From a virus (Duplodnaviria > Heunggongvirae > Uroviricota > Caudoviricetes), in the IMG/VR virus record IMGVR_UViG_2545824644_000012, positions 1 to 15,261 of that record: a stretch of 15,261 bases of DNA, one strand, 5' to 3'. Shown piece by piece: positions 1 to 14,044 of this stretch (within the stretch, counting starts at the first letter, position 1; each line of letters begins with the position of its first letter). The notes under the pieces were generated by a model. That model saw only the letters and a program-made list of their open reading frames with translations. It did no database searches and was not told where the DNA came from. The translations under genes and the position numbers were made by a program.

Positions 1-1131
1 TCAAATGACCAGTTTTTTCCATTCCTTACCACGTGCGTCGTTGTAAATATCGGTCATTTTTTGATTCGAATGTCCCAGCAAAATTTTGGTATCAATTCCC
101 TGTTCTCTGAACAATCGTTCTGATAAAGATCTCTGCTCATGGAAAGAGGGTGGGGTGCCATTAGCACGCCAGTTGTAATCCACAGAATCCCGGGCTTTTT
201 TAAATGCAACGGTTAACGTTGCTGGCTTAACCATCCCGCCGCGCTTAGCTGTCCCTTTAGCATGATGGTGGTGCAATAGCCACGGACTAAGAACGCAATC
301 GCGACAGGATGACACCACATCATCCAGGGTGAGATTTAATTTATCGCAACGCAGAGCCAGAGGGATGGCAATCCGGGTTCCTGTTTTTTGCTGTTCGACA
401 TGAAGATAACCATCCCTGATATCCGAAAATTTCATTTTGCAAATATCTGAAAGGCGCTGGCCTGTCATCAGTGCCAGCAGCATACCACGCTGTAAAAAGT
501 AACCATTCTTTTCCGCTGCATTATAAATCATCATCCACTCATCAAAGGTCAGTCGTTGCCGTGATATCCGTACCTGGGGTTTTTTTGCCGATTCTGCAGG
601 GTTAAAGCCTGGCGGGACATCGCCCGTTTGCTGGGCCTCCCGGAAAACATCGATCAGTACTTTCCTGAAAATTTGTCCCATTCTGTTATGTCCTTTTGCC
701 TTGTAATCTTCCAGCACCGATACCACATCTTTTACGGTTATGGCATCTAATGGTCTGGTACCAAAACGTTCATCAAATACTCTGAGAGGGGATGCTTTCT
801 GTTTCAGTGTGTTGAGTTTGATCTCTCCGTTTTCATATCTTTCCTGTTGAATTTTTCGGTAACTATTCAGAAAAGCAGAAACGGTTGATGGACTACCGGT
901 ATCACTAATAATTTTCTCCTGCAGACTGAGCATTTGTTCCATTTGTTGCCTGGCAAGACGGCTGTTCGCTTCTGCTGCAATAGCTTCTGCCTGTTTCTGG
1001 TCAATACTGCCGAGTCCGTGATTTTTTCCTGTTATGGGATGCCTGTAACGCCAGTAAACTTTGTTATTTCTTTTGTCAAAATACGGAGATAATCCCGGAA
1101 CTTCAGTTTTATATTTTCGTGGGCGCGCCAT
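1..1131 (-). CDS. int: Phage tyrosine integrase (lambda Int family), complete
   Basis: 376-aa ORF; C-terminal catalytic-domain motifs resemble lambda Int (HEQRSLSERL, LLGHSNQKMTDIY with the presumed catalytic Tyr); stop codon at window positions 1-3; 23-nt overlap with the upstream excisionase, as in lambda xis-int. Confidence 0.9.
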   Translation of the reverse strand: MARPRKYKTEVPGLSPYFDKRNNKVYWRYRHPITGKNHGLGSIDQKQAEAIAAEANSRLARQQMEQMLSLQEKIISDTGSPSTVSAFLNSYRKIQQERYENGEIKLNTLKQKASPLRVFDERFGTRPLDAITVKDVVSVLEDYKAKGHNRMGQIFRKVLIDVFREAQQTGDVPPGFNPAESAKKPQVRISRQRLTFDEWMMIYNAAEKNGYFLQRGMLLALMTGQRLSDICKMKFSDIRDGYLHVEQQKTGTRIAIPLALRCDKLNLTLDDVVSSCRDCVLSPWLLHHHHAKGTAKRGGMVKPATLTVAFKKARDSVDYNWRANGTPPSFHEQRSLSERLFREQGIDTKILLGHSNQKMTDIYNDARGKEWKKLVI

Positions 1132-1421: not shown

Positions 1422-3893
1422 TTAAAAATCAGCCTGACTCGGGAGCAGTTTTTGCCAGATGGCTGAAACGTATTTTGCCTGGTAACGAGCATCGTGCAGC
1501 GCGTTATGGCGTTCACCTTCGAATGGAATAGTCGTTCTTGCGTCGAAATCCATCACCAGTCCCAGAGCAACCATCGTTCTTACATCGCGATCATTGGTGA
1601 AACGCCACGGGCAGGGGAGCCCCTGTCGTTCATATGAACGGCGTAAAATCACGTTGTCGAAAGTTGCACCGTTACCCCAGACCTGAACAAAAAATTCACC
1701 GGAGTTTTCGTCGATAAATTCCCGTAGTTGCAGCAGTGCATCATCCAACGGGATTTCATCGGTCAGAATGGCGGATTGTGCTTCGCGTGACTGTTTCAGC
1801 CACCACTTAATGGTGTCCCGATCGATGACCCCGCCTGCGGTTTCCAGATCGATAGTTTTGCTGAATTCTGGCCCCATCTCTCCGGTTGCCGGATCAAAAA
1901 ACTTACCGGCTATAGCGTTTATTGGCGCATCAGGATTTTTTCCCATTGTTTCAAGGTCAATCATCAGATGGTGCCACAACCTGCTGGTGGATGTGATTTC
2001 ATGATGACCGTTCACTTTAATTAAGGGATTTGCTGTCTCGCCAGTTTTATTATCGCTGGCGTGATACTGATCGCTGCCAGTGTTCTCCTTGTGCAGATGT
2101 TCAGTGCCTTCCATTTCCTCCGGAGCATTTTCCTGAGCTTCAGCCTGATTCTCTTCATCGAATGTTTCCTGGTAGGTTGCGTTCCCCATCACCGCACCAC
2201 AGTCAGGACAGTTGCCGCCACCGGTCTGACCGCATGCGGTGCAAACTTTTTCCAGTTCCTGTTGCACTGCTGGTTCTGGTTGTTGTTCTTCTGGCCCGTT
2301 TTGTTGCGTATCCGGGCTGTTTTGTTCCGCTTCTGGCTCATTTTGTTTCACGTTGGGCTGATTCAGGTCCTCAGCGTCGCGACTCTGGATCCCTTTCACC
2401 CATTTCGGATCATCCGGGTCGCTAATCCCTTCAACAAATTCACCACGTGATGCAGCAAGCAATTTATCGGCGTCAGGCTGGCTGATATTGGCTGCCTGCA
2501 TAATTTTGTTTACTTCGTCAGCGGTAACTTTTACCGGCTCTGGTTGTTCGGAATCTTCAGTGCTATCCACATTTTGCGGTAAGCCCGTGTATGTGCCATT
2601 TTTTCGGGCAAAATATTCTTCTTTTGAGATTTCGGTACCGCCGGCAGCCAGCGCCCTGTCCAGACCAGAAAGTTTGTTTGCCCTGCCGTATTTTTCCCCG
2701 CCCTTATCGGTAAAGACGAAATAAAATGGTCCTTCACGCTCTACAGATGGTTCAGCTTCCACCAGGATTTCATTTTTTTGAGTATCGGATTCTGCCGTCT
2801 CCACTGGAGCAGTTTGTGCTGCTGACTGCTGGAGAGCATTAGCAGAGCTCTGGTCTGTTTCTTCATGTTCAAACACGCCCTTTGTCGTCAGGTATTCGCT
2901 GATATATTTGTTCAGTGCAACGGGATCTTTGTGAATATCGATCGGACGTTCGCGAACAAGGCCAAAAATAGTCTGACGGTCATAGGCAAGTGCTTCGGGC
3001 TGTTTGCGCATTGATGCTGAGATACGCTTCCAGTCTTCGCGATCCTTGTCGATAACCTCATTTGTCGCCCAGCGATGGATGGTACCGTCAATGTTTCCTG
3101 CATCCACATCACCGGGCCAGAGGGCGCAGGCCAGTTCATTGTCGAGTGTTTTCCATGTCTGTTTGTATTCGCGGCGAATGGCAACAGTGACAGCCCCGGT
3201 TTTTTCAGCAGCGTTTTCAGTGTTCTGTTGGTTGACTCTGGCGCGGGCGAGATCAACAACAGACGTGTATTTTCCGGTTTCCTTGCGTTCACCTTCGCGA
3301 CGTTTTTTCCAGATGCGCATCTCTGCCTGAATTTCAGGCCATTTAGCGCCAGGCTCACATTTATTCTTAACCCACCCGATGGCATGCAGTTTAAGTTCAG
3401 GATACATGGCGTTAACTTCTGGCATTTTCATCAACGCTTCAACGATATGTCCGCCGAATGTTGCCATGTCTTCCTGTAGTAATTCCTGTGCGCTAATCAC
3501 CATATCAACGGTGATGTTTTCGCATGTGTCGAATTTAACCAGGACTGCGTTCTGTACTTCAGGGGACAGCTTGTCAAAATTGACGTTCATCGGATCGGAT
3601 TCGGGTTCGACCGGGACAAAGGACGCAGACTCCTCATCCCAGCGGTTTTCCTGCATATATTCGGTATCCCAGGAATCGAGGGCAGGGCGGGGTATGCCGG
3701 GTTTATCCTCGCAGACAATAAATTTATAAGCGCAGTCCTGAGCTGCCGGGAATTGCTCCAGAAATTGCCAGTGAAATTTTGCGCGTGCGCGACGCTCATC
3801 ACCGGCTTCAATGGCAGTGGCCACCGCAACAGCGCTATCTTCTTCTATGGCCTGCTCGTCAGGAATAGCAGCGCAAATAAAGATTTTATTCAT
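1422..3893 (-). CDS. Large RecE-like exonuclease (exodeoxyribonuclease VIII-like) with C-terminal DEDDh 3'-5' exonuclease domain
   Basis: 823-aa ORF. C-terminal ~180 aa carry DnaQ/RNase T-type motifs ([34 protein letters not shown]). Central acidic Q/E/P-rich low-complexity stretch with a CxxC-x8-CxxC zinc-ribbon ([16 protein letters not shown]). Sits where lambdoid phages carry exo/recE, upstream of xis-int. GAGG about 11 nt before the ATG. Confidence 0.7.
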
Positions 3894-3988: not shown

Positions 3989-4177
3989 TTATCCAGCCGG
4001 TGTTTCGTTATTCAGGTACAGCGATACTTTTTTTACCGGGAGGCATTCACCGGGGATTTTTTGTTCGTCCCTTACCTGAATGCAGGATGACTTACTGTCA
4101 TAAATTCCGGTAATCACATTCTGCGGCTCACCCGTTATAAGAAAAACGGTCATCACCAGTGCAAATGCTGAAGTCAT
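3989..4177 (-). CDS. ydfD: YdfD-like small lysis protein (Qin ydfD homologue)
   Basis: 62-aa ORF with hydrophobic N-terminus (MTSAFALVMTVFLITGEP) and EQKIPG.C.PV.KV pattern recalled from Qin YdfD; GGAG 7 nt upstream; ATG overlaps the dicB stop (ATGA). Confidence 0.6.
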   Translation of the reverse strand: MTSAFALVMTVFLITGEPQNVITGIYDSKSSCIQVRDEQKIPGECLPVKKVSLYLNNETPAG

Positions 4178-4362
4178 TGACGTTCTCCGAAAATACCAAG
4201 TTTAATAAGGGCAATTCGGGAAAGAATGGAATTATCATTGAGCAGATAAGGCTCATATTTCCGCATATTAATGGCATCCTCAGTAAACGCTTTATTACTG
4301 AGCAGAACACCAATATCAAAACAACCTTCAGACGTATTAACGTTTGGTAATAACGTTTCCAT
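4174..4362 (-). CDS. dicB: Cell-division inhibitor DicB homologue
   Basis: 62-aa ORF; N-terminus METLLPNVNTSEGCFDIGV..FTEDAIN.RK matches recalled K-12 DicB (MKTLLPNVNTSEGCFEIGV...FTEDAINKRK); GAGGA 7 nt upstream of the ATG; same length as DicB. Confidence 0.75.
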   Translation of the reverse strand: METLLPNVNTSEGCFDIGVLLSNKAFTEDAINMRKYEPYLLNDNSILSRIALIKLGIFGERQ

Positions 4363-5366: not shown

Positions 5367-5654
5367 TTAAAGATTAGCGGGGAATTGTCGACGGGCGTGA
5401 ACCACGTTTACAATTTCAATACCTGAAGTTGTCACCCGGTACAAAATTATGTAATTGGGGTGAGCCACAATCTCGCGCAAACCTGGCACTCTGTCGCTTG
5501 GCGGATATAAATACGGATGTTCGGATAACGGCAGGACGCAAGCTCTTAAGCGTTGCCATAAGCGTTCTGCCGCATCTATGTCGAAACGGGCAATATAACT
5601 AGTTATATCATCCAGATCGGTATCTGCGCTTTCAAGCCATAACACGGGTAACAT
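5367..5654 (-). CDS. parE2: ParE/RelE-family type II toxin (ParE2-like)
   Basis: 95-aa ORF starting directly after the antitoxin stop (TAA-ATG); RelE/ParE-like size and sequence; partner of a PaaA2-like antitoxin. Confidence 0.8.
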   Translation of the reverse strand: MLPVLWLESADTDLDDITSYIARFDIDAAERLWQRLRACVLPLSEHPYLYPPSDRVPGLREIVAHPNYIILYRVTTSGIEIVNVVHARRQFPANL

Positions 5655-5846
5655 TTACTGCTCTCTCCGTTCCTTGCGAATTTTGGCAAAGCGTTCTGCC
5701 ATTCTGCGCTCAACTTCATCATGTGGAATAGCAGGACGTGGATCAGCAAGGCTTGCGGCTACTTTTGCGCGTAACCATTCGTTATAACTGTTTTCTTGCT
5801 CAACGGTTTCAAATTCAGAAACCATTGGTGAAAGGGCTGTATTCAT
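5655..5846 (-). CDS. paaA2: PaaA2-like antitoxin (63 aa)
   Basis: Using the internal Met gives MNTALSPMVSEFETVEQENSYNEWLRAKVAASLADPRPAIPHDEVERRMAERFAKIRKERREQ, near-identical to the recalled E. coli O157 PaaA2. AGGAGG 6 nt upstream of this ATG; the longer track ORF (to 5909) would overlap the repressor gene. Confidence 0.85.
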   Translation of the reverse strand: MNTALSPMVSEFETVEQENSYNEWLRAKVAASLADPRPAIPHDEVERRMAERFAKIRKERREQ

Positions 5847-6385: not shown

Positions 6386-6646
6386 ATGCTCAATAGCACC
6401 CGTGAAAAAATTAAGCAGAAATACACACAGGCTGAAATAGGACGCTATATGGGAGTAACCCAACAAACTGTTTGGCAATGGTTTAGCTTGGGTATTCCTC
6501 CCAAACAGGTAATCCCTTTATGCCAACTAATGCAGTGGGGGGTTACTCCTCACGAACTCCGACCTGATATTTATCCTAACCCAACAGACGGCTTGCCTGC
6601 TGAGTTTCAGACTAGCACACAGCCAGCGACGGGAGTTGATTCATGA
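6386..6646 (+). CDS. Cro-like HTH regulator (YdaS family)
   Basis: 86-aa ORF; GAGGAGGG Shine-Dalgarno; motif GVTQQTVWQW..GIPP...ELRPD typical of YdaS/Cro-like proteins; divergent from the repressor. Confidence 0.7.
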   Translation: MLNSTREKIKQKYTQAEIGRYMGVTQQTVWQWFSLGIPPKQVIPLCQLMQWGVTPHELRPDIYPNPTDGLPAEFQTSTQPATGVDS

Positions 6647-7068
6647 AAATCAAGCATGAGCACATCCGCATGGCGATGAATGCCTGGGCATATCCTGACG
6701 GTGAGAAAGTTCCCGCAGCTGAAATAGCCCGGACTTATTTCGAACTGGGGATGACGTTCCCGGAACTGTACGACGACACTCATCCTGAGGCCCTGGCTCG
6801 TAATACCCAGAAAATTTTCCGTTGGCTGGATAAAGACACCCATGATGCTGTTGAAAAAATTCAGGCTCTGTTACCGGCGATCGAAAAGGCGATGCCGCCT
6901 TTGCTGGTGGCCCGTATGCGCAGTCACAGTTCTGAGTACTACCGGGAGATTGTCGAACGGCGGGATCGGCTGGTGAAGGATGTCGACGATTTTGTTGCGT
7001 CAGCGGTCGTTTTGTATGACCAGATAAATCGCGGCGGCCCGGCAGGGAATGCTGTGGTGATGCACTAA
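6643..7068 (+). CDS. YdaT-family protein (CII-like regulator / putative toxin)
   Basis: 141-aa ORF beginning MKIKHEHI, as recalled for Rac YdaT; ATG overlaps the cro-like stop (ATGA), matching the ydaS-ydaT arrangement. Confidence 0.6.
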   Translation: MKIKHEHIRMAMNAWAYPDGEKVPAAEIARTYFELGMTFPELYDDTHPEALARNTQKIFRWLDKDTHDAVEKIQALLPAIEKAMPPLLVARMRSHSSEYYREIVERRDRLVKDVDDFVASAVVLYDQINRGGPAGNAVVMH

Positions 7069-8065: not shown

Positions 8066-8818
8066 ATGAAAGATATCGCGACAGTTGCAGTTGGTGTTCT
8101 GGAACGCATCCGCAGACTGGCTCCTGAGCACGTTCCCGTGCCGTACAGTACGACGGAGGAGTGGCGCGAGTGGCAACTTGCCGAAGGCCGGAAATACTGC
8201 GAGGAGATTAACCGCCGGAATCGTCAGTTGCGGGTGGAAAAAATCCTGAACCGTTCGGGCATCCAGCCGCTGCACCGCAAATGTTCGTTCGCGAATTACC
8301 AGGTGCGGAACGACGGGCAGAAACATGCGCTGAGCCAGGCTAAATCCATCGCTGAGGAAATGATGACCGGTTATACAAACTTCGTGTTCAGCGGGAATCC
8401 GGGAACCGGAAAAAATCATCTGGCGGCGGCTGTGGGTAATCGTCTGCTGAAGGCTGGTAAATCCGTGATAGTGGTCACCGTGGCGGATGTGATGAGCGCG
8501 TTACATGCCAGCTATGACGACGGGCTGTCAGGGGAAAAATTTTTGCGTGAACTGTGCGAAGTGGACCTCCTGGTTCTTGACGAAATTGGCATCCAGCGTG
8601 AGACGAAAAACGAGCAGGTGGTACTGCACCAGATTGTTGACCGCCGGACGGCATCACTGTGCAGTGTCGGGATGCTGACAAACCTGAATCATGCCGCAAT
8701 GAGCACGCTTCTTGGTGAGAGGATTATGGACAGGATGACCATGAACGGTGGTCGCTGGGTGAGTTTTAACTGGGAAAGCTGGCGTCCCAATGTCAGCCAT
8801 CTGAGAGTATTGAAGTAA
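8066..8818 (+). CDS. DnaC-like helicase loader (IstB-like AAA+ ATPase)
   Basis: 250-aa ORF; Walker [16 protein letters not shown] and Walker [10 protein letters not shown]; overall very similar to recalled E. coli DnaC ([13 protein letters not shown]..., MLTN..., LGERVMDRM). Confidence 0.9.
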
Positions 8819-8840
8819 TTTTTATCCGGAGGAAATTTTA

Positions 8841-9557
8841 ATGGAAACCGTTTTTGACGCACTGAAAGCACTGAAAAGAGCCTCTTCACAGGTAGTGGCG
8901 GCCCGCCTTGGAATCAGCCGTGAAGATGCGGTCAACGAACTGTGGAAACTGAAGCGCCGTGGTGAAGCGGATAACAAGGGGTCGATGTGGTGGCTGATTC
9001 AGGCTGGTGAAAGTGAACCTGTGTCACAGGTACCGAAAGTGACAGCGCAAATGCTGACTGAGGCGATTGAACAACATGGCCCACAAACGGCGGATGAACT
9101 GGCACTGATGTTCGGAATTACCTCCCGCCGGGCGAATTCATCGCTGGCGATGGCAATCAGCAAAGGGCGTCTGATTCGCGTGAATCAGGGCGGTAAATTT
9201 CGTTACTGCATACCGGGCGCTGATTTACCGGCAGAGCCGGAAGCTGCATCCGTAGCGGAAACGGATGGTAAAGCCTTTCCTCAGCCAGCAGGAGTTGCGT
9301 TACCGGTACAGGAAGCGGCGACACAGGAAGAAATTAAAACAGATACTGTGGCGGACATTGTGCAGTCGCTGCCATCGTTTACCGAAACGAAAGCAGATGA
9401 CCTGATTCTACCATCGCTGAATGTGGCTAACCGCGAGCTGCGCCGGGCGAAAAGTCATGTCCAGAAGTGGGAGCGTGTCTGTGCCGCGCTGCGGGAACTG
9501 AACAAACACAGGGATATTCTCCGGGATATTACCACCACCAGAGAGCAGCAACAGTGA
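8841..9557 (+). CDS. Hypothetical protein with two winged-helix-like segments and a C-terminal coiled-coil (possibly DUF1627-like)
   Basis: 238-aa ORF with GGAGG Shine-Dalgarno; two HTH-like segments ([17 protein letters not shown] and [26 protein letters not shown]); function unknown. Confidence 0.6.
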
Positions 9558-9871
9558 GTGGCTGGAAGACGTGGTGCCGGGCGGAAATCCTGATACTCCG
9601 GCAGTGTGCGGGAACAATGACGGTGGAATGCATCGGGATGCTTATTGGTCGTAGTGAGGCTGCGGTCAGAACGAAAGCGCGGGAACTGGGTATTAGTATG
9701 ATGTTACGGGGTGATTATCACCAGTCAGCAAAATATCCGCAGAGTGATATTGAGCTGGCGCGACAGCAGCATCAGCGTGGCGTGTCGAGGAGAGAAATCG
9801 CCAGAAAATTCGGAATGCCGTTGCGCACAGTGAATAACTACGTTTATTTCGACAGGAGGGTGTCTGCGTGA
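9554..9871 (+). CDS. Small HTH protein, NinH-like C-terminus
   Basis: GTG start overlapping the upstream stop (GTGA); alternative ATG at 9617. C-terminal [21 protein letters not shown] resembles lambda NinH (EVARRLKCSRGTVRKYV). Confidence 0.5.
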
Positions 9872-10095
9872 AAATCCTGTATCAGGATTACGGCCCGGTG
9901 GGGCAGGTGCTTATCAGCAGTACTGTAATGGAGTTCCGGAAGCATAACCGTGTGGTGGATTCTGTGCTGTTAACCTGTCCGGGGATATCGGCGAGTCGTG
10001 CAGGTGTGTTTATTATGAAGACGAAATTATATGGCAGTAAGGCGTGGATAAAGAAGGCGTATCGTGTAGCGTTGCAGGAGGTTAACAGTGAGTGA
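9868..10095 (+). CDS. Hypothetical 75-aa protein
   Basis: GTG start overlapping the upstream stop; AGGAGGG 7 nt upstream; no recognisable domain. Confidence 0.45.
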   Translation: MKILYQDYGPVGQVLISSTVMEFRKHNRVVDSVLLTCPGISASRAGVFIMKTKLYGSKAWIKKAYRVALQEVNSE

Positions 10096-10399
10096 AATTA
10101 AAGAAATGCCGGTAGTTCGTGACGAATATGGCTACTGGACACATCCTGAATATGAAAAATTCTGTGATGGTCGGGAGAATATTTCAACGGAAGAATTTAA
10201 CGCGTGGATGGAGGCAAATAATCTTCAGTGGACTATCTGCACTATGGATGAAGATGATTTTAACCTGGACGCAGATGGCCCTGATATTTCAGCATGGGAA
10301 CCGGAACGACCAGAGGGCGATGGCTGGTTTATTGGTTCCATTCATGATACGGAAGATGGCCCGGTTTGTGTCTGGTTGCGAAATAAGGCTGAAGCATAA
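10088..10399 (+). CDS. Hypothetical strongly acidic 103-aa protein
   Basis: GTG start with AGGAGG 6 nt upstream, overlapping the upstream stop. Roughly 29 Asp/Glu against about 7 Lys/Arg; several conserved-looking Trp residues. Confidence 0.55.
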   Translation: MSEIKEMPVVRDEYGYWTHPEYEKFCDGRENISTEEFNAWMEANNLQWTICTMDEDDFNLDADGPDISAWEPERPEGDGWFIGSIHDTEDGPVCVWLRNKAEA

Positions 10400-10745
10400 A
10401 GGAGATAAACCAACTAACAACTAAATACTGAAGATTTAAATCAGAAACGATTTTTATTAAATCCTTAACCGGAGGGATTCCTGCACCCTCAGAATATCAG
10501 GAGGCCGCCCGAAAGGGCGGTAAGAAATGAAACATTATTTAGAAAAAATTACCCACGAAAGAGCAGAACAACAGAGTTTCTGTTTTTCATTCTGTTTATA
10601 GTGTTGATGATACCGATATCCCCGCTATTACTGGTCTGGATAATTGGAAGGACATTTGAACCAGTTATTGAGCTATATACCGATGTGACATGGGAATCAT
10701 TCAGCGCACTGCACAATAAAATTAATCCGTATAAGGAAAACTGAT

Positions 10746-11418: not shown

Positions 11419-11593
11419 TGCAGCGGGTGCTTGAGGCTATCTGCCTCGGGCATGAACACCAACGGCAGATAGAGAAAAGCCCCAGTTAACATTACGCGTC
11501 CTGCAAGACGCTTAACATTAATCTGAGGCTCAATCCATGCTGAACACATGTAGGTTAGCCTCTTACGTGCCGAAAGGCAAGGAGAAGCAGGCT

Positions 11594-11749
11594 ATGAAGC
11601 AGCAAAAGGCGATGTTAATCGCCCTGATCGTCATCTGTTTAACCGTCATAGTGACGGCACTGGTAACGAGGAAAGACCTCTGCGAGGTGCGAATCCGAAC
11701 CGGTCAGACGGAGGTCGCTGTCTTCGTAGACTACGAATCTGAGAAGTAA
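11594..11749 (+). CDS. hok: Hok/Gef-family type I toxin (HokD/RelF-like)
   Basis: 51-aa ORF MKQQKAMLIALIVICLTVIVTALVTRKDLCEVRIRTGQTEVAVFVDYESEK with the Hok signature; AAGGAG upstream. The in-frame upstream ATG at 11537 (track ORF) would add a 19-aa extension. Confidence 0.85.
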   Translation: MKQQKAMLIALIVICLTVIVTALVTRKDLCEVRIRTGQTEVAVFVDYESEK

Positions 11750-12608: not shown

Positions 12609-13658
12609 GTGCGGGTATTACTTCGACCTGTTCTGGTTCCGGAACTCGGGCTGGTGGTCCTTAAGCCCGGTCGTGAATCATTGCCAGTTTTTCATCGCGG
12701 CAGGGTGCTGGTGGAGCCGGAACCGAAAAACATGCGCGGTCTGCCGTCCGGAGTCGTTCCTGCCGTTCGCCAGCCGCTGGCAGAGGATAAAACATTACTG
12801 CCATTTTTCAGCGATGAGCGGGTTATTCGTGCAGCAGGTGGTGCAGGTGCACTGTCTGACTGGTTATTACGTCACGTGAAATCCTGCCAGTGGCCACACG
12901 GCGATTATCATCACAGCGAAACCGTCATTCACCGTTACGGTACCGGCGCGATGGTGTTGTGCTGGCACTGTGACAACCAGCTGCGCGACCAGACATCAGA
13001 ATCACTCGATCAACTTGCTCAGCAGAATCTGGTTGCCTGGATGATTGACGTCATCCGTCACGCAATAAGCGGTACGCAGGAGAGGGAGTTATCGCTGGCC
13101 GAATTATCCTGGTGGGCGGCCTGCAGTCAGGTGGTGGATGCACTACCTGAGGCAGTAGCGCGTCGTTCGCTGGGATTACCAGCGGAAAAAATCCGCTCCG
13201 TATACCGTGAGAGTGACATCGTACCGGGAGAACAGACAGCCATCAGCATACTGAAGCAGCGCACAAAAAATATTGCGCTGCCACTTCACGTCCACCAGCA
13301 ACAAAATCCACCACAGAAAAAAACGGTTGTCAGTATCGCCGTTGATCCGGAGTCTCCTGAATCGTTCATGAGGCGGCCTAAACGTCGCCGTTGGGTTAAT
13401 GAGAAATACACGCGCTGGGTAAAGACACAGCCGTGTGCGTGTTGTGGTAAGCCTGCTGACGATCCGCATCACCTGATTGGTCATGGTCAGGGGGGAATGG
13501 GGACAAAGGCCCACGATATTTTCACGCTACCGTTGTGCCGGGAGCACCACAACGAACTTCATGCAGACCCGCTGGAGTTTGAGAAAAAGTACGGCTCTCA
13601 GATTGAGTTAATTTTTCGTTTTCTTGATCACGCCTTTGCGACTGGCGTGCTCGGGTAA
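12609..13658 (+). CDS. DUF968-like protein (YdfU family) with C-terminal HNH-like Cys/His motif
   Basis: GTG start at 12609 (GGAGG 4 nt upstream) gives 349 aa; C-terminal CACCGKPADDPHHLIGHG...CREHHNELH resembles an HNH/zinc-binding nuclease motif. The track start at 12555 lacks a ribosome-binding site and overlaps the upstream gene. Confidence 0.65.
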   Translation: MRVLLRPVLVPELGLVVLKPGRESLPVFHRGRVLVEPEPKNMRGLPSGVVPAVRQPLAEDKTLLPFFSDERVIRAAGGAGALSDWLLRHVKSCQWPHGDYHHSETVIHRYGTGAMVLCWHCDNQLRDQTSESLDQLAQQNLVAWMIDVIRHAISGTQERELSLAELSWWAACSQVVDALPEAVARRSLGLPAEKIRSVYRESDIVPGEQTAISILKQRTKNIALPLHVHQQQNPPQKKTVVSIAVDPESPESFMRRPKRRRWVNEKYTRWVKTQPCACCGKPADDPHHLIGHGQGGMGTKAHDIFTLPLCREHHNELHADPLEFEKKYGSQIELIFRFLDHAFATGVLG

Positions 13659-13670
13659 AAGAGGTGACTG

Positions 13671-14044
13671 ATGCTCATAGATTTGGTTTTACCTTACCCG
13701 CCGACGGTGAACACTTACTGGAGACGCCGTGGCAGCACATATTTTGTATCAAAAGCAGGGGAGCGTTATCGCCGGCAGTGGCGCTTATTGTTCGCCAGCA
13801 GCGACTGAAATTAAGCCTGTCCGGACGGCTGGCAATAAAAATTATTGCAGAGCCACCGGATAAGCGTCGTCGCGACCTGGACAATATTCTGAAAGCACCG
13901 CTGGATGCGCTGACGCATGCGGGAGTGCTTATTGATGACGAGCAGTTTGATGAAATCAATATTGTACGTGGTCAGCCAGTATCTGGTGGACGTCTGGGGG
14001 TGAAGATTTACCCCATAATGCTTGAAGGGCAGGTCAAAAAATGA
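13671..14044 (+). pseudogene. rusA: rusA Holliday-junction resolvase, apparently disrupted by a -1 frameshift
   Basis: From ATG 13671 (AAGAGG 6 nt upstream) the frame reads MLIDLVLPYPPTVNTYWRRRGSTYFVSKAGERYRR, matching the RusA N-terminus, then stops at 13806-13808. The RusA C-terminus (AVALIV...PDKRRRDLDN...) continues in the -1 frame to 14044. The shift maps to the G-run near 13774-13776. Confidence 0.65.

Follow-up and report, generated by a model that had tools for sequence, protein, structure and literature searches.

Four overlapping genes between the replication and nin-like regions of an ompW-integrated lambdoid prophage: probably a mosaic operon segment and not one cassette

Introduction

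When the stop and start codons of neighbouring phage genes overlap one after another, the question arises whether the genes form one functional unit. Four such genes lie at positions 8841-10399 of the window, by which we mean the whole analysed stretch of 15,261 nucleotides of a Caudoviricetes record (IMG/VR IMGVR_UViG_2545824644_000012). An earlier note on this DNA had described them as a block of translationally coupled genes and had pointed to the host-takeover or anti-defence functions that such variable cassettes often encode. Here we analysed the reading frames and their junctions, the families of the four products, and the distribution of the genes in related prophages and phages.

Results

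At 100% identity, the window matches the ompW-adjacent prophage in the RefSeq record of E. coli OkiPb01678, which is a Rac-like lambdoid prophage integrated at ompW. All four reading frames are intact and on the same strand (Table 1), and the PGAP annotation of the identical record gives the same four coding sequences with the same ends (locus coordinate = window + 301), so that both sources bear out the gene coordinates proposed before. The location of the block was likewise confirmed: O-like and DnaC-like replication genes precede it, and a nin-like stretch ending in RusA and Q follows. Inside 8841-10399, no promoter-like or terminator-like site was seen on the coding strand and no RNA family was found with Rfam.

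The four genes belong to four separate catalogued and uncharacterised families, PF07789, phrog_323, phrog_1001 and phrog_1372, respectively. PADLOC and NCBIfam gave nothing meaningful for the four proteins, while PDB searches with single sequences (all four proteins) and with profiles (ORF1 and ORF2) returned only marginal wHTH/HTH or spurious TPR matches. None of the four resembles a characterised housekeeping protein, so the homology against which the earlier note had set its reading was not found, and its statement that function is not assignable from sequence holds.

Table 1. Features of the four-gene block (nucleotide positions refer to the window, aa positions to the named protein)
Feature	Position	Strand	Remarks
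Shine-Dalgarno of ORF1, GGAGG	8828-8832	+	in 22-nt spacer; DnaC-like gene stops at 8818
ORF1	8841-9557	+	238 aa; DUF1627/YdaW family; PGAP CDS WP_021499160.1
ORF1 putative wHTH 1	aa 1-55		sub-threshold wHTH family matches at aa 2-47
ORF1 putative wHTH 2	aa ~65-125		sub-threshold wHTH matches at aa 65-136
ORF1 linker	aa ~126-185		Pro/Ala/Glu-rich
ORF1 conserved C-terminal segment	aa ~188-232		family alignment
ORF1/ORF2 overlap, GTGA	9554-9557	+	ORF2 GTG start 9554-9556; ORF1 TGA stop 9555-9557
ORF2	9554-9871	+	105 aa; basic (pI 10.2); putative DNA-binding; PGAP "DNA-binding protein"
ORF2 second conserved region	aa ~5-48		may also be HTH
ORF2 HTH	aa 65-98		sub-threshold HTH_23 and Sigma70_r4_2 matches at aa 73-98
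Shine-Dalgarno of ORF3, AGGAGG	9854-9859	+	within ORF2 3' end, 8 nt before ORF3 start
ORF2/ORF3 overlap, GTGA	9868-9871	+	ORF3 GTG start; ORF2 TGA stop
ORF3	9868-10095	+	75 aa; basic (pI 9.8); phrog_1001 family
Shine-Dalgarno of ORF4, AGGAGG	10076-10081	+	within ORF3 3' end, 6 nt before ORF4 start
ORF3/ORF4 overlap, 8 nt, GTGAGTGA	10088-10095	+	ORF4 GTG start 10088-10090; ORF3 TGA stop 10093-10095
ORF4	10088-10399	+	103 aa; phrog_1372 family

Judged by their conservation, all four ORFs are real genes. A suspicion that some of them, especially the short ORF3 or the GTG-initiated ones, are chance reading frames could be based on the GTG start of three of the four and on the word-indexed protein search, in which ORF3 had only 8 matches, mostly partial. 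This is hardly credible: the exhaustive search retrieved 42 cluster representatives of ORF3 at 30-54% identity, its AF2 model reached a pLDDT of 92.7, homologues of ORF4 extend to phages of Burkholderia, Pseudomonas and Vibrio, each of the four has a PHROG family, and the substitutions in ORF1 and ORF2 relative to a 91%-identical allele are biased to the third codon position (13/13/38 and 11/9/31 changes by codon position, respectively). These conservation data already refute the chance-frame reading.

The three stop/start overlaps were present exactly at the positions given in the earlier note (Table 1), and the GTGA at the ORF1/ORF2 junction is conserved in five loci. The anatomy expected of translational coupling, namely overlapping stop and start codons and a ribosome-binding site for the second gene that lies within the first, was found, with only a weak purine run in place of a clear Shine-Dalgarno sequence upstream of ORF2. 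ORF3 and ORF4 would be translated from their own strong Shine-Dalgarno sequences inside the upstream gene. Since the ORF2 signal is weak, re-initiation of ribosomes terminating on ORF1 is proposed as its probable main route, as the anatomy suggests. The same kinds of junction were kept with other genes: in other strains DUF4406 is preceded by the junction seen between ORF2 and ORF3 (AGGAGG + GTGA), and 4- or 8-nt overlaps are retained upstream of ORF4 homologues despite an unrelated upstream gene (loci L005 and L006, and phage D6). D6 orf95, just upstream of the D6 homologue of ORF4, was considered as a relative of ORF3 and ruled out. The overlaps are real yet not unusual, being common in the operon and recurring in relatives with different genes; because identical junctions are kept with unrelated partners, they do not mark partnership.

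The distribution of the genes was surveyed in 5426 E. coli genomes, with the whole block defined as at least 80% of 8841-10399 matched. Some part of the block was found in 1972 genomes and the whole block in only 509, which come mostly from heavily sampled, clonal STEC lineages and are for that reason not independent observations. ORF1 is the commonest of the four (~1970 of the 5426 genomes), followed by ORF2 (771), ORF4 (655) and ORF3 (529). The genes following DUF1627 in relatives were ORF2 and DUF4406; ORF2, ORF3 and a methyltransferase; DUF977, an unrelated 84-aa gene and ORF4; an ORF3-family gene with others and then ORF4; DUF977 and then unrelated genes; or an Ead/Ea22-like gene. Compared with the O145 allele, identity is uneven (ORF1 91%, ORF2 83.5%, ORF3 98.6%, ORF4 90%), and recombination joints lie at or near gene borders. 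Outside E. coli, 51 loci of other species carry an ORF4 homologue; within 5 kb of it ORF1 or ORF3 was present in none and ORF2 in two. Among the matches listed, none of the phage records holds all four genes together. The comparative-genomics check proposed in the earlier note, whether the four travel together, was thus answered in the negative: distributions differ, the genes are exchanged one by one, and the idea of a single four-gene cassette was not upheld. ORF2 and ORF4 homologues were found as direct or near neighbours in Pantoea stewartii, an Erwinia species, Serratia phage Parlo and phage D6, and this repeated proximity could reflect a functional link between those two genes.

ORF1 belongs to the DUF1627/YdaW family, since Pfam PF07789 matched its aa 76-230 over profile positions 1-155 of 155 (E 6.2e-90; 299.4 bits, cut-off 28.1); the PHROG match was phrog_630 (E 4e-120). 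This identity had been missed in the earlier note, which saw a tandem winged-helix protein; two stretches (aa 2-47 and 61-136) agree with that description, and it is kept as putative, with all wHTH matches sub-threshold, including the PDB profile matches of aa 61-119 to the wHTH proteins 2d1h and FeoC. An internal tandem duplication was rejected, as the two halves have no significant similarity. In the family alignment the C-terminal tail co-varies with the gene downstream. By eye, the conserved C-terminal segment has the look of an amphipathic helix. In the word-indexed protein search, all matches among those listed for ORF1 were at least 83% identical.

In every one of the 10 contexts examined, which comprise the window and 9 further loci, DUF1627 comes immediately after the helicase-loader gene; the loaders are of both the DnaC and the lambda P type and the repressor types differ. 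ORF1 is the only gene of the four with a fixed position. It is a pseudogene, with a frameshift or internal stop, in three of these 10 loci. Like ydaW in the Rac prophage, it stands directly after replication genes of the ydaU/ydaV type, but K-12 ydaW is truncated, covering only positions 224-414 of the 8841-10399 query (window 9064-9254, approximately ORF1 aa 75-138), whereas ORF1 is full length. The DUF1627/YdaW family is uncharacterised, and the literature found on ydaW/DUF1627 comprised a listing in a retron screen and mentions of synteny.

A relationship of ORF1 to lambda Ren was tried and rejected (BLASTP E 1.4; ORF1 profile against lambda Ren, hhalign E 0.09, probability below 1%). The family of both lambda Ren (E 1e-41) and DUF977 (E 1e-46) is phrog_142, which matched ORF1 only partially, over the generic wHTH at aa 71-120 (E 7e-5), and did not match ORF2. 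The Ren-like gene in relatives is DUF977, a separate gene after DUF1627, and in the related loci L005, L008 and L012 it occupies the slot of ORF2.

ORF2, which is flanked by DUF1627 and ORF3 and precedes Q by about 4 kb, was assigned to phrog_323 (E 9e-26). Its start at 9554 is supported by the GTGA junction and by a conserved N-terminus in five E. coli loci and phage D6, while PGAP chose later starts in some strains. The halves of ORF2 are not significantly similar, and an internal duplication was rejected here too. The description of ORF2 as NinH-like does not survive: Phage_NinH (PF06322; cut-off 29.8 bits, with lambda NinH itself at 149.5 bits) gave no match at E <= 1, and BLASTP against lambda NinH gave E 0.1, with an alignment confined to the generic HTH. 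The two proteins are alike in being small, in carrying an HTH with a weak HTH_23 match and in being encoded in a lambdoid early-right operon, but lambda NinH has 68 aa and belongs to phrog_268, whereas ORF2 carries an extra conserved N-terminal region; NinH-type proteins have a single HTH and their genes adjoin ninG and ninI/Q, while ORF2 adjoins the replication genes. We suggest that ORF2 may be a small HTH DNA-binding regulator in a slot filled by a Ren-like gene in relatives.

The size of ORF3, 75 aa, was as described previously, and phrog_1001, annotated as "unknown function", matched over positions 1-74 of 75 (E 1.7e-36). The AF2 model is a beta-beta-alpha-beta-beta-alpha two-layer sandwich, by prediction a generic ACT/ferredoxin-like fold, which resembles ACT regulatory domains and permuted BMC shell domains at the fold level only. 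In Stx phages, ORF3 homologues are placed some 2 kb into the record; where the distance was checked, in phiSTEC1589-Stx1c, the homologue at 1680-1898 is far from the replication module, with DUF1627 at 12761-13498.

ORF4 is strongly acidic, as had been stated (pI 4.05; 26 D+E vs 7 K+R; net charge about -19), and matched positions 55-158 of 194 of phrog_1372, also annotated as "unknown function" (E 3.6e-55). Its predicted fold is beta-alpha-alpha-beta, an acidic loop and beta-beta, and no solved structural relative was found. There are 245 ORF4 clusters across Enterobacterales and matches in 82 phage records, with hosts from E. coli to Burkholderia, Pseudomonas and Vibrio; in other phages the domain occurs alone or, often, fused to other segments. 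Divergence between alleles is concentrated at aa 48-65, where the third strand lies and the acidic loop begins. A candidate zinc site (His19, Cys26, His86, Cys94) was dropped because Cys26, His86 and Cys94 are not conserved in homologues from Pseudomonas, Vibrio, Burkholderia and Serratia phages, and kinship to the neighbouring DUF551 domain was rejected as well (hhalign E 0.55). ORF4 shares a strong net negative charge with the acidic DNA-mimic anti-restriction proteins of the Ocr/ArdA type, but no resemblance to a known DNA mimic was found in its structure or sequence.

Discussion

The block is probably an ordinary mosaic segment of an early-right (pR-type) operon, made up of four independently exchangeable accessory genes and not of one system. 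The opposite reading, in which the products act together, for example in anti-defence or host takeover, and the overlaps enforce their stoichiometry, could draw on the three successive overlaps, on the complete block kept in 509 E. coli genomes, on its presence in 96% of the genomes with a close ORF3 allele (509 vs 529) and on the proximity of the ORF2 and ORF4 homologues in Pantoea, Erwinia, Parlo and D6. It appears very unlikely, as clonal STEC lineages dominate the 509 genomes, related prophages replace each of the genes on its own, ORF1 and ORF3 are missing from all 51 ORF4 loci of other species, the ORF3 homologues of Stx phages lie in a different region, and identical overlap junctions occur with unrelated partner genes. 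Alternatively, ORF1 could be an accessory of the replication module, acting on origin-region DNA or on the initiator-loader-DnaB complex, with the other three genes as unrelated passengers. Its constant place beside the helicase-loader gene in the 10 contexts, irrespective of loader and repressor type, its two likely wHTH domains and its being the most widespread of the four argue for this; the pseudogenes in three of the 10 loci and the lambda annotation, in which ren and no DUF1627 directly follows P, argue against it, and the linkage to the loader may be historical. This role is possible but doubtful.

Inhibition of a bacterial defence system by at least one of the proteins, for which ORF1 or the acidic ORF4 would be the most plausible, is unlikely. 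The truncated K-12 ydaW was among the prophage "blockers" of the retron-Sen2 toxin RcaT in a TIC overexpression screen (bioRxiv 10.1101/2020.06.22.160242), although in the available part of that preprint ydaW is named in the hit list only and the re-tested hits are not specified, and K-12 ydaW is a fragment covering part of the protein. ORF4 is small, of pI 4.05, widespread in unrelated phages and divergent between alleles mainly within aa 48-65, but its domain is frequently joined to further modules. ORF2 occupies the place of the anti-exclusion gene Ren, and PADLOC gave no meaningful matches. A bolder version, in which ORF4 is a widespread inhibitor of unsolved fold whose variable acidic loop contacts a host protein or defence factor and full-length ORF1 neutralises retron-type abortive-infection toxins, is quite unlikely; if it were true, these would be two new anti-defence or host-takeover functions, though not one system.

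For the mosaic operon segment, the closest comparison is the ren-nin region of lambda, which occupies the same place in the operon (P to Q), holds small dispensable genes with ATGA/GTGA overlaps and is mosaic between phages; moreover, the slot after DUF1627 in relatives holds DUF977, a member of lambda Ren's PHROG family. The two regions differ in that none of the four genes in the window is homologous to ren or any nin gene and that no DUF1627 is annotated between P and ren in lambda. During induction, the cro/O/P transcript would read through into the four genes. ORF1, with its two likely winged-helix domains, would bind DNA; it is tied by position to the replication module and may dimerise via its conserved C-terminal segment. 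From their fold class, ORF3 and ORF4 may bind proteins or small ligands, as non-essential modulators of phage or host physiology.

Hundreds of E. coli genomes already have identical or near-identical copies of these genes annotated, and all four fall into existing families. The useful outcome is negative or organisational: the block is not a unit, and ORF2 is not NinH. Of the four genes, only DUF1627 keeps a fixed position, ORF2 lies in a slot that holds a Ren-like gene in relatives, and ORF4 is an acidic domain, widely distributed in phages, with no structural relative solved. For functional screens of prophage accessory genes, ORF1 and ORF4 are reasonable choices of low priority.

Gene reality and translation signals

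All four ORFs of the block are genuine genes, because substitutions in ORF1 and ORF2 are third-position-biased (against a 91%-identical allele) and because of the spread of homologues of ORF3 (42 representatives, down to 30% identity) and ORF4 (245 clusters within Enterobacterales, as well as homologues from 82 phage records). PGAP annotation gives these four CDS with identical ends, and the stop/start overlaps described in the earlier note are exact in the sequence (Table). A Shine-Dalgarno (SD) motif, GGAGG, lies within the 22-nt spacer between the helicase-loader gene and ORF1, AGGAGG precedes the GTG starts of ORF3 and ORF4 by 8 and 6 nt, respectively, inside the preceding gene, and only a weak purine run is present upstream of ORF2. 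For ORF2, a start at 9554 is supported, since the GTGA junction and the N-terminal residues are conserved in five E. coli loci and phage D6; a downstream ATG is lost in one of the five E. coli strains compared. Within the block, no promoter-like or terminator-like site was detected on the coding strand and no Rfam family was matched. The four genes would be transcribed by read-through of the early-right transcript on induction, with ORF3 and ORF4 presumably initiated on their own strong SDs and ORF2 probably translated by re-initiation after ORF1.

Coordinates of the block and of other prophage features
Feature	Position	Strand	Remark
3'-5' exonuclease-annotated gene	1422-3893	minus	823 aa
dicB	4174-4362	minus	
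RelE/ParE-RelB pair	5367-5846	minus	toxin-antitoxin
YdaS-like cro	about 6386-6659	plus	flagged frameshifted by PGAP
ORF1	8841-9557	plus	238 aa
ORF1/ORF2 overlap	9554-9557	plus	GTGA
ORF2	9554-9871	plus	105 aa, pI 10.2
ORF2/ORF3 overlap	9868-9871	plus	GTGA
ORF3	9868-10095	plus	75 aa, pI 9.8
ORF3 part compared with STEC allele	9872-10087	plus	98.6% identity
ORF3/ORF4 overlap	10088-10095	plus	GTGAGTGA
ORF4	10088-10399	plus	103 aa, pI 4.05
ORF4 aa 48-65	10229-10282	plus	two allelic forms
GC-rich hairpin	10503-10521		GGCCGCCC GAAA GGGCGG
DUF4014 gene	10527-10744	plus	1-nt deletion
Poly-A tract in DUF4014 gene	about 10543-10548	plus	A6 (A7 in O145 allele)
sok (Rfam match)	11425-11599		113.5 bits; type I toxin-antitoxin
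Hok ORF end	11749	plus	
RusA gene	about 13671-14044	plus	flagged frameshifted by PGAP

Prophage context

The window is 100% identical to the prophage adjoining ompW in E. coli OkiPb01678 (bovine faeces), and the element is a Rac-like lambdoid prophage. Its minus-strand genes are, in order, integrase, excisionase, a large 3'-5' exonuclease, dicB and the RelE/RelB pair; the repressor gene, directly adjoined by this pair, separates them from the plus-strand genes YdaS-like cro, YdaT, O-like initiator, DnaC-like loader, ORF1-ORF4, DUF4014, DUF551, hok/sok, YgiW-like, DUF968, RusA and Q. The exonuclease-annotated protein has a long, acidic, low-complexity central region and is encoded in the early-left operon, beside dicB and a DUF1482 gene.

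The deletion in the DUF4014 gene shifts its ATG at 10527 out of the reading frame of the DUF4014 domain, and PGAP rescues the gene by taking 10496 as a non-canonical start; the gene is probably either a pseudogene created by the frameshift or a site of slippage. Together with the frameshift flags on cro and RusA, this suggests that the prophage is decaying. Unlike these three genes, ORF1-ORF4 are all intact. The hairpin in the spacer 3' of ORF4 overlaps the DUF4014 SD region and is not a typical intrinsic terminator, since no T-run follows it.

Separate distribution of the four genes

The earlier note had implied that the four genes form one cassette and asked whether they travel together. They are not co-inherited: the genes are replaced individually in related prophages and have separate distributions in E. 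coli and beyond. Among 5426 complete E. coli genomes, some part of the block was found in 1972, mostly ORF1, and at least 80% of it in only 509, which are mostly O157, O145, O111, O121 and O103 STEC, i.e. heavily sampled clonal lineages. ORF2, ORF3 and ORF4 occurred in 771, 529 and 655 genomes, respectively, with frequent extra copies of ORF2 and ORF4 in other prophages of one genome.

In related prophages (L003-L008, L012, L013), DUF1627, the family of ORF1, is followed by ORF2 and then DUF4406 (L003, L007), by ORF2, ORF3 and a class I methyltransferase (L004), by DUF977, an unrelated 84-aa gene and ORF4 (L005), by an ORF3-family gene, two other genes and ORF4 (L006), by DUF977 and unrelated genes (L008, L012), or by an Ead/Ea22-like gene (L013). 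Homology breaks at or near gene borders, and identity to the O145 allele is uneven along the block (ORF1 91%, ORF2 83.5%, ORF3 98.6%, ORF4 90%, >99% downstream). ORF3 matches the allele of about 500 STEC genomes, in which the flanking ORF2 and ORF4 are 84% and 90% identical, showing sharp sub-kilobase mosaicism at gene borders. The stop/start overlaps are retained at these junctions even with an unrelated partner gene; such overlap thus characterises the region and does not indicate functional partnership.

In other species, neither ORF1 nor ORF3 was found within 5 kb of an ORF4 homologue at any of 51 loci, and ORF2 was near it at only two, in reversed order. In Stx phages, homologues of ORF3 are located close to the opposite end of the early region, and none of the records listed from the phage collection carries all four genes.

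Several unrelated elements carry homologues of ORF2 and ORF4 at a short distance from each other (L033 5001-5629, L035 5001-5635, L011 2751-3947, L010 2950-5494). In Pantoea stewartii and in an Erwinia species, ORF4 immediately precedes ORF2; the two are separated by one small gene in Serratia phage Parlo and lie 2 kb apart in P1-like phage D6. Their proximity may be a coincidence within early regions or may point to a functional link.

Encoded proteins

ORF1 is a full-length DUF1627/YdaW member (PF07789, E 6e-90; also phrog_630). Separate sub-threshold winged-helix family matches were obtained over aa 2-47 and aa 65-136, and the family profile matched the wHTH proteins 2d1h and FeoC in the PDB over aa 61-119; the tandem winged helix of the earlier note is thus plausible, its two regions being recovered at sub-threshold level. 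These regions are followed by a linker rich in Pro, Ala and Glu and by a C-terminal segment that is strongly conserved.

ORF2 belongs to phrog_323, with an HTH at aa 65-98, recognised from sub-threshold matches to HTH_23 and Sigma70_r4_2, and a conserved N-terminal region. Its description as NinH-like did not hold, as Phage_NinH was not matched, against 149 bits for lambda NinH itself. Membership of the NinH family was rejected; BLASTP against NinH gave only E 0.1, over a generic recognition helix.

The short third and strongly acidic fourth products were as described. ORF3 (phrog_1001) was modelled by AF2 as a beta-beta-alpha-beta-beta-alpha sandwich (pLDDT 92.7), and ORF4 (phrog_1372) as a small alpha/beta domain that carries a long acidic loop (pLDDT 84.9). 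The ORF4 domain is standalone in E. coli, Pseudomonas and Vibrio phages, and is fused N-terminally in PY54 ORF48 and Klebsiella phage SJM3, internally in Burkholderia phi1026b gp46 and C-terminally in Serratia phage Parlo gp049. A candidate Zn site in ORF4 was rejected, three of its four residues not being conserved in distant homologues. The two ORF4 alleles (QWTICTMDEDDFNLDADGPD and QYVLCFRDEGCADLDACDAD at aa 48-65) have 12 of their 16 non-synonymous codon differences in this segment, which covers the third strand and the acidic-loop start; recombination of this patch or diversifying selection may explain the pattern.

Possible roles

ORF1 and ORF2 would be DNA-binding proteins, and ORF3 and ORF4 small binding modules. 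A replication-accessory role is possible for ORF1. DUF1627 lies directly 3' of the helicase-loader gene in 10 of 10 contexts, with DnaC-type or lambda-P-type loaders and differing repressors, and three of the loci examined have it as a pseudogene, so that it is dispensable for a resident prophage. It is often followed by DUF977, a Ren-like family that shares one PHROG family with lambda Ren, and in lambda ren is directly 3' of P; in the window this Ren-like slot is held by ORF2. The C-terminal tail of ORF1 changes along with the downstream gene. An anti-defence role, as the earlier note had suggested for the block, is possible for ORF1 or ORF4; the sole published pointer to it is truncated K-12 ydaW, which an overexpression screen lists among its blockers of the retron-Sen2 toxin (bioRxiv 10.1101/2020.06.22.160242).

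RefSeq annotates all four proteins, and Pfam or PHROGs already contain them as proteins of unknown function. The block is real but ordinary, and is neither a cassette nor a new kind of system. Its closest analogue is the lambda ren-nin accessory region, whose genes have no homology to ORF1-ORF4 but which is alike in operon position, packing and mosaic behaviour.
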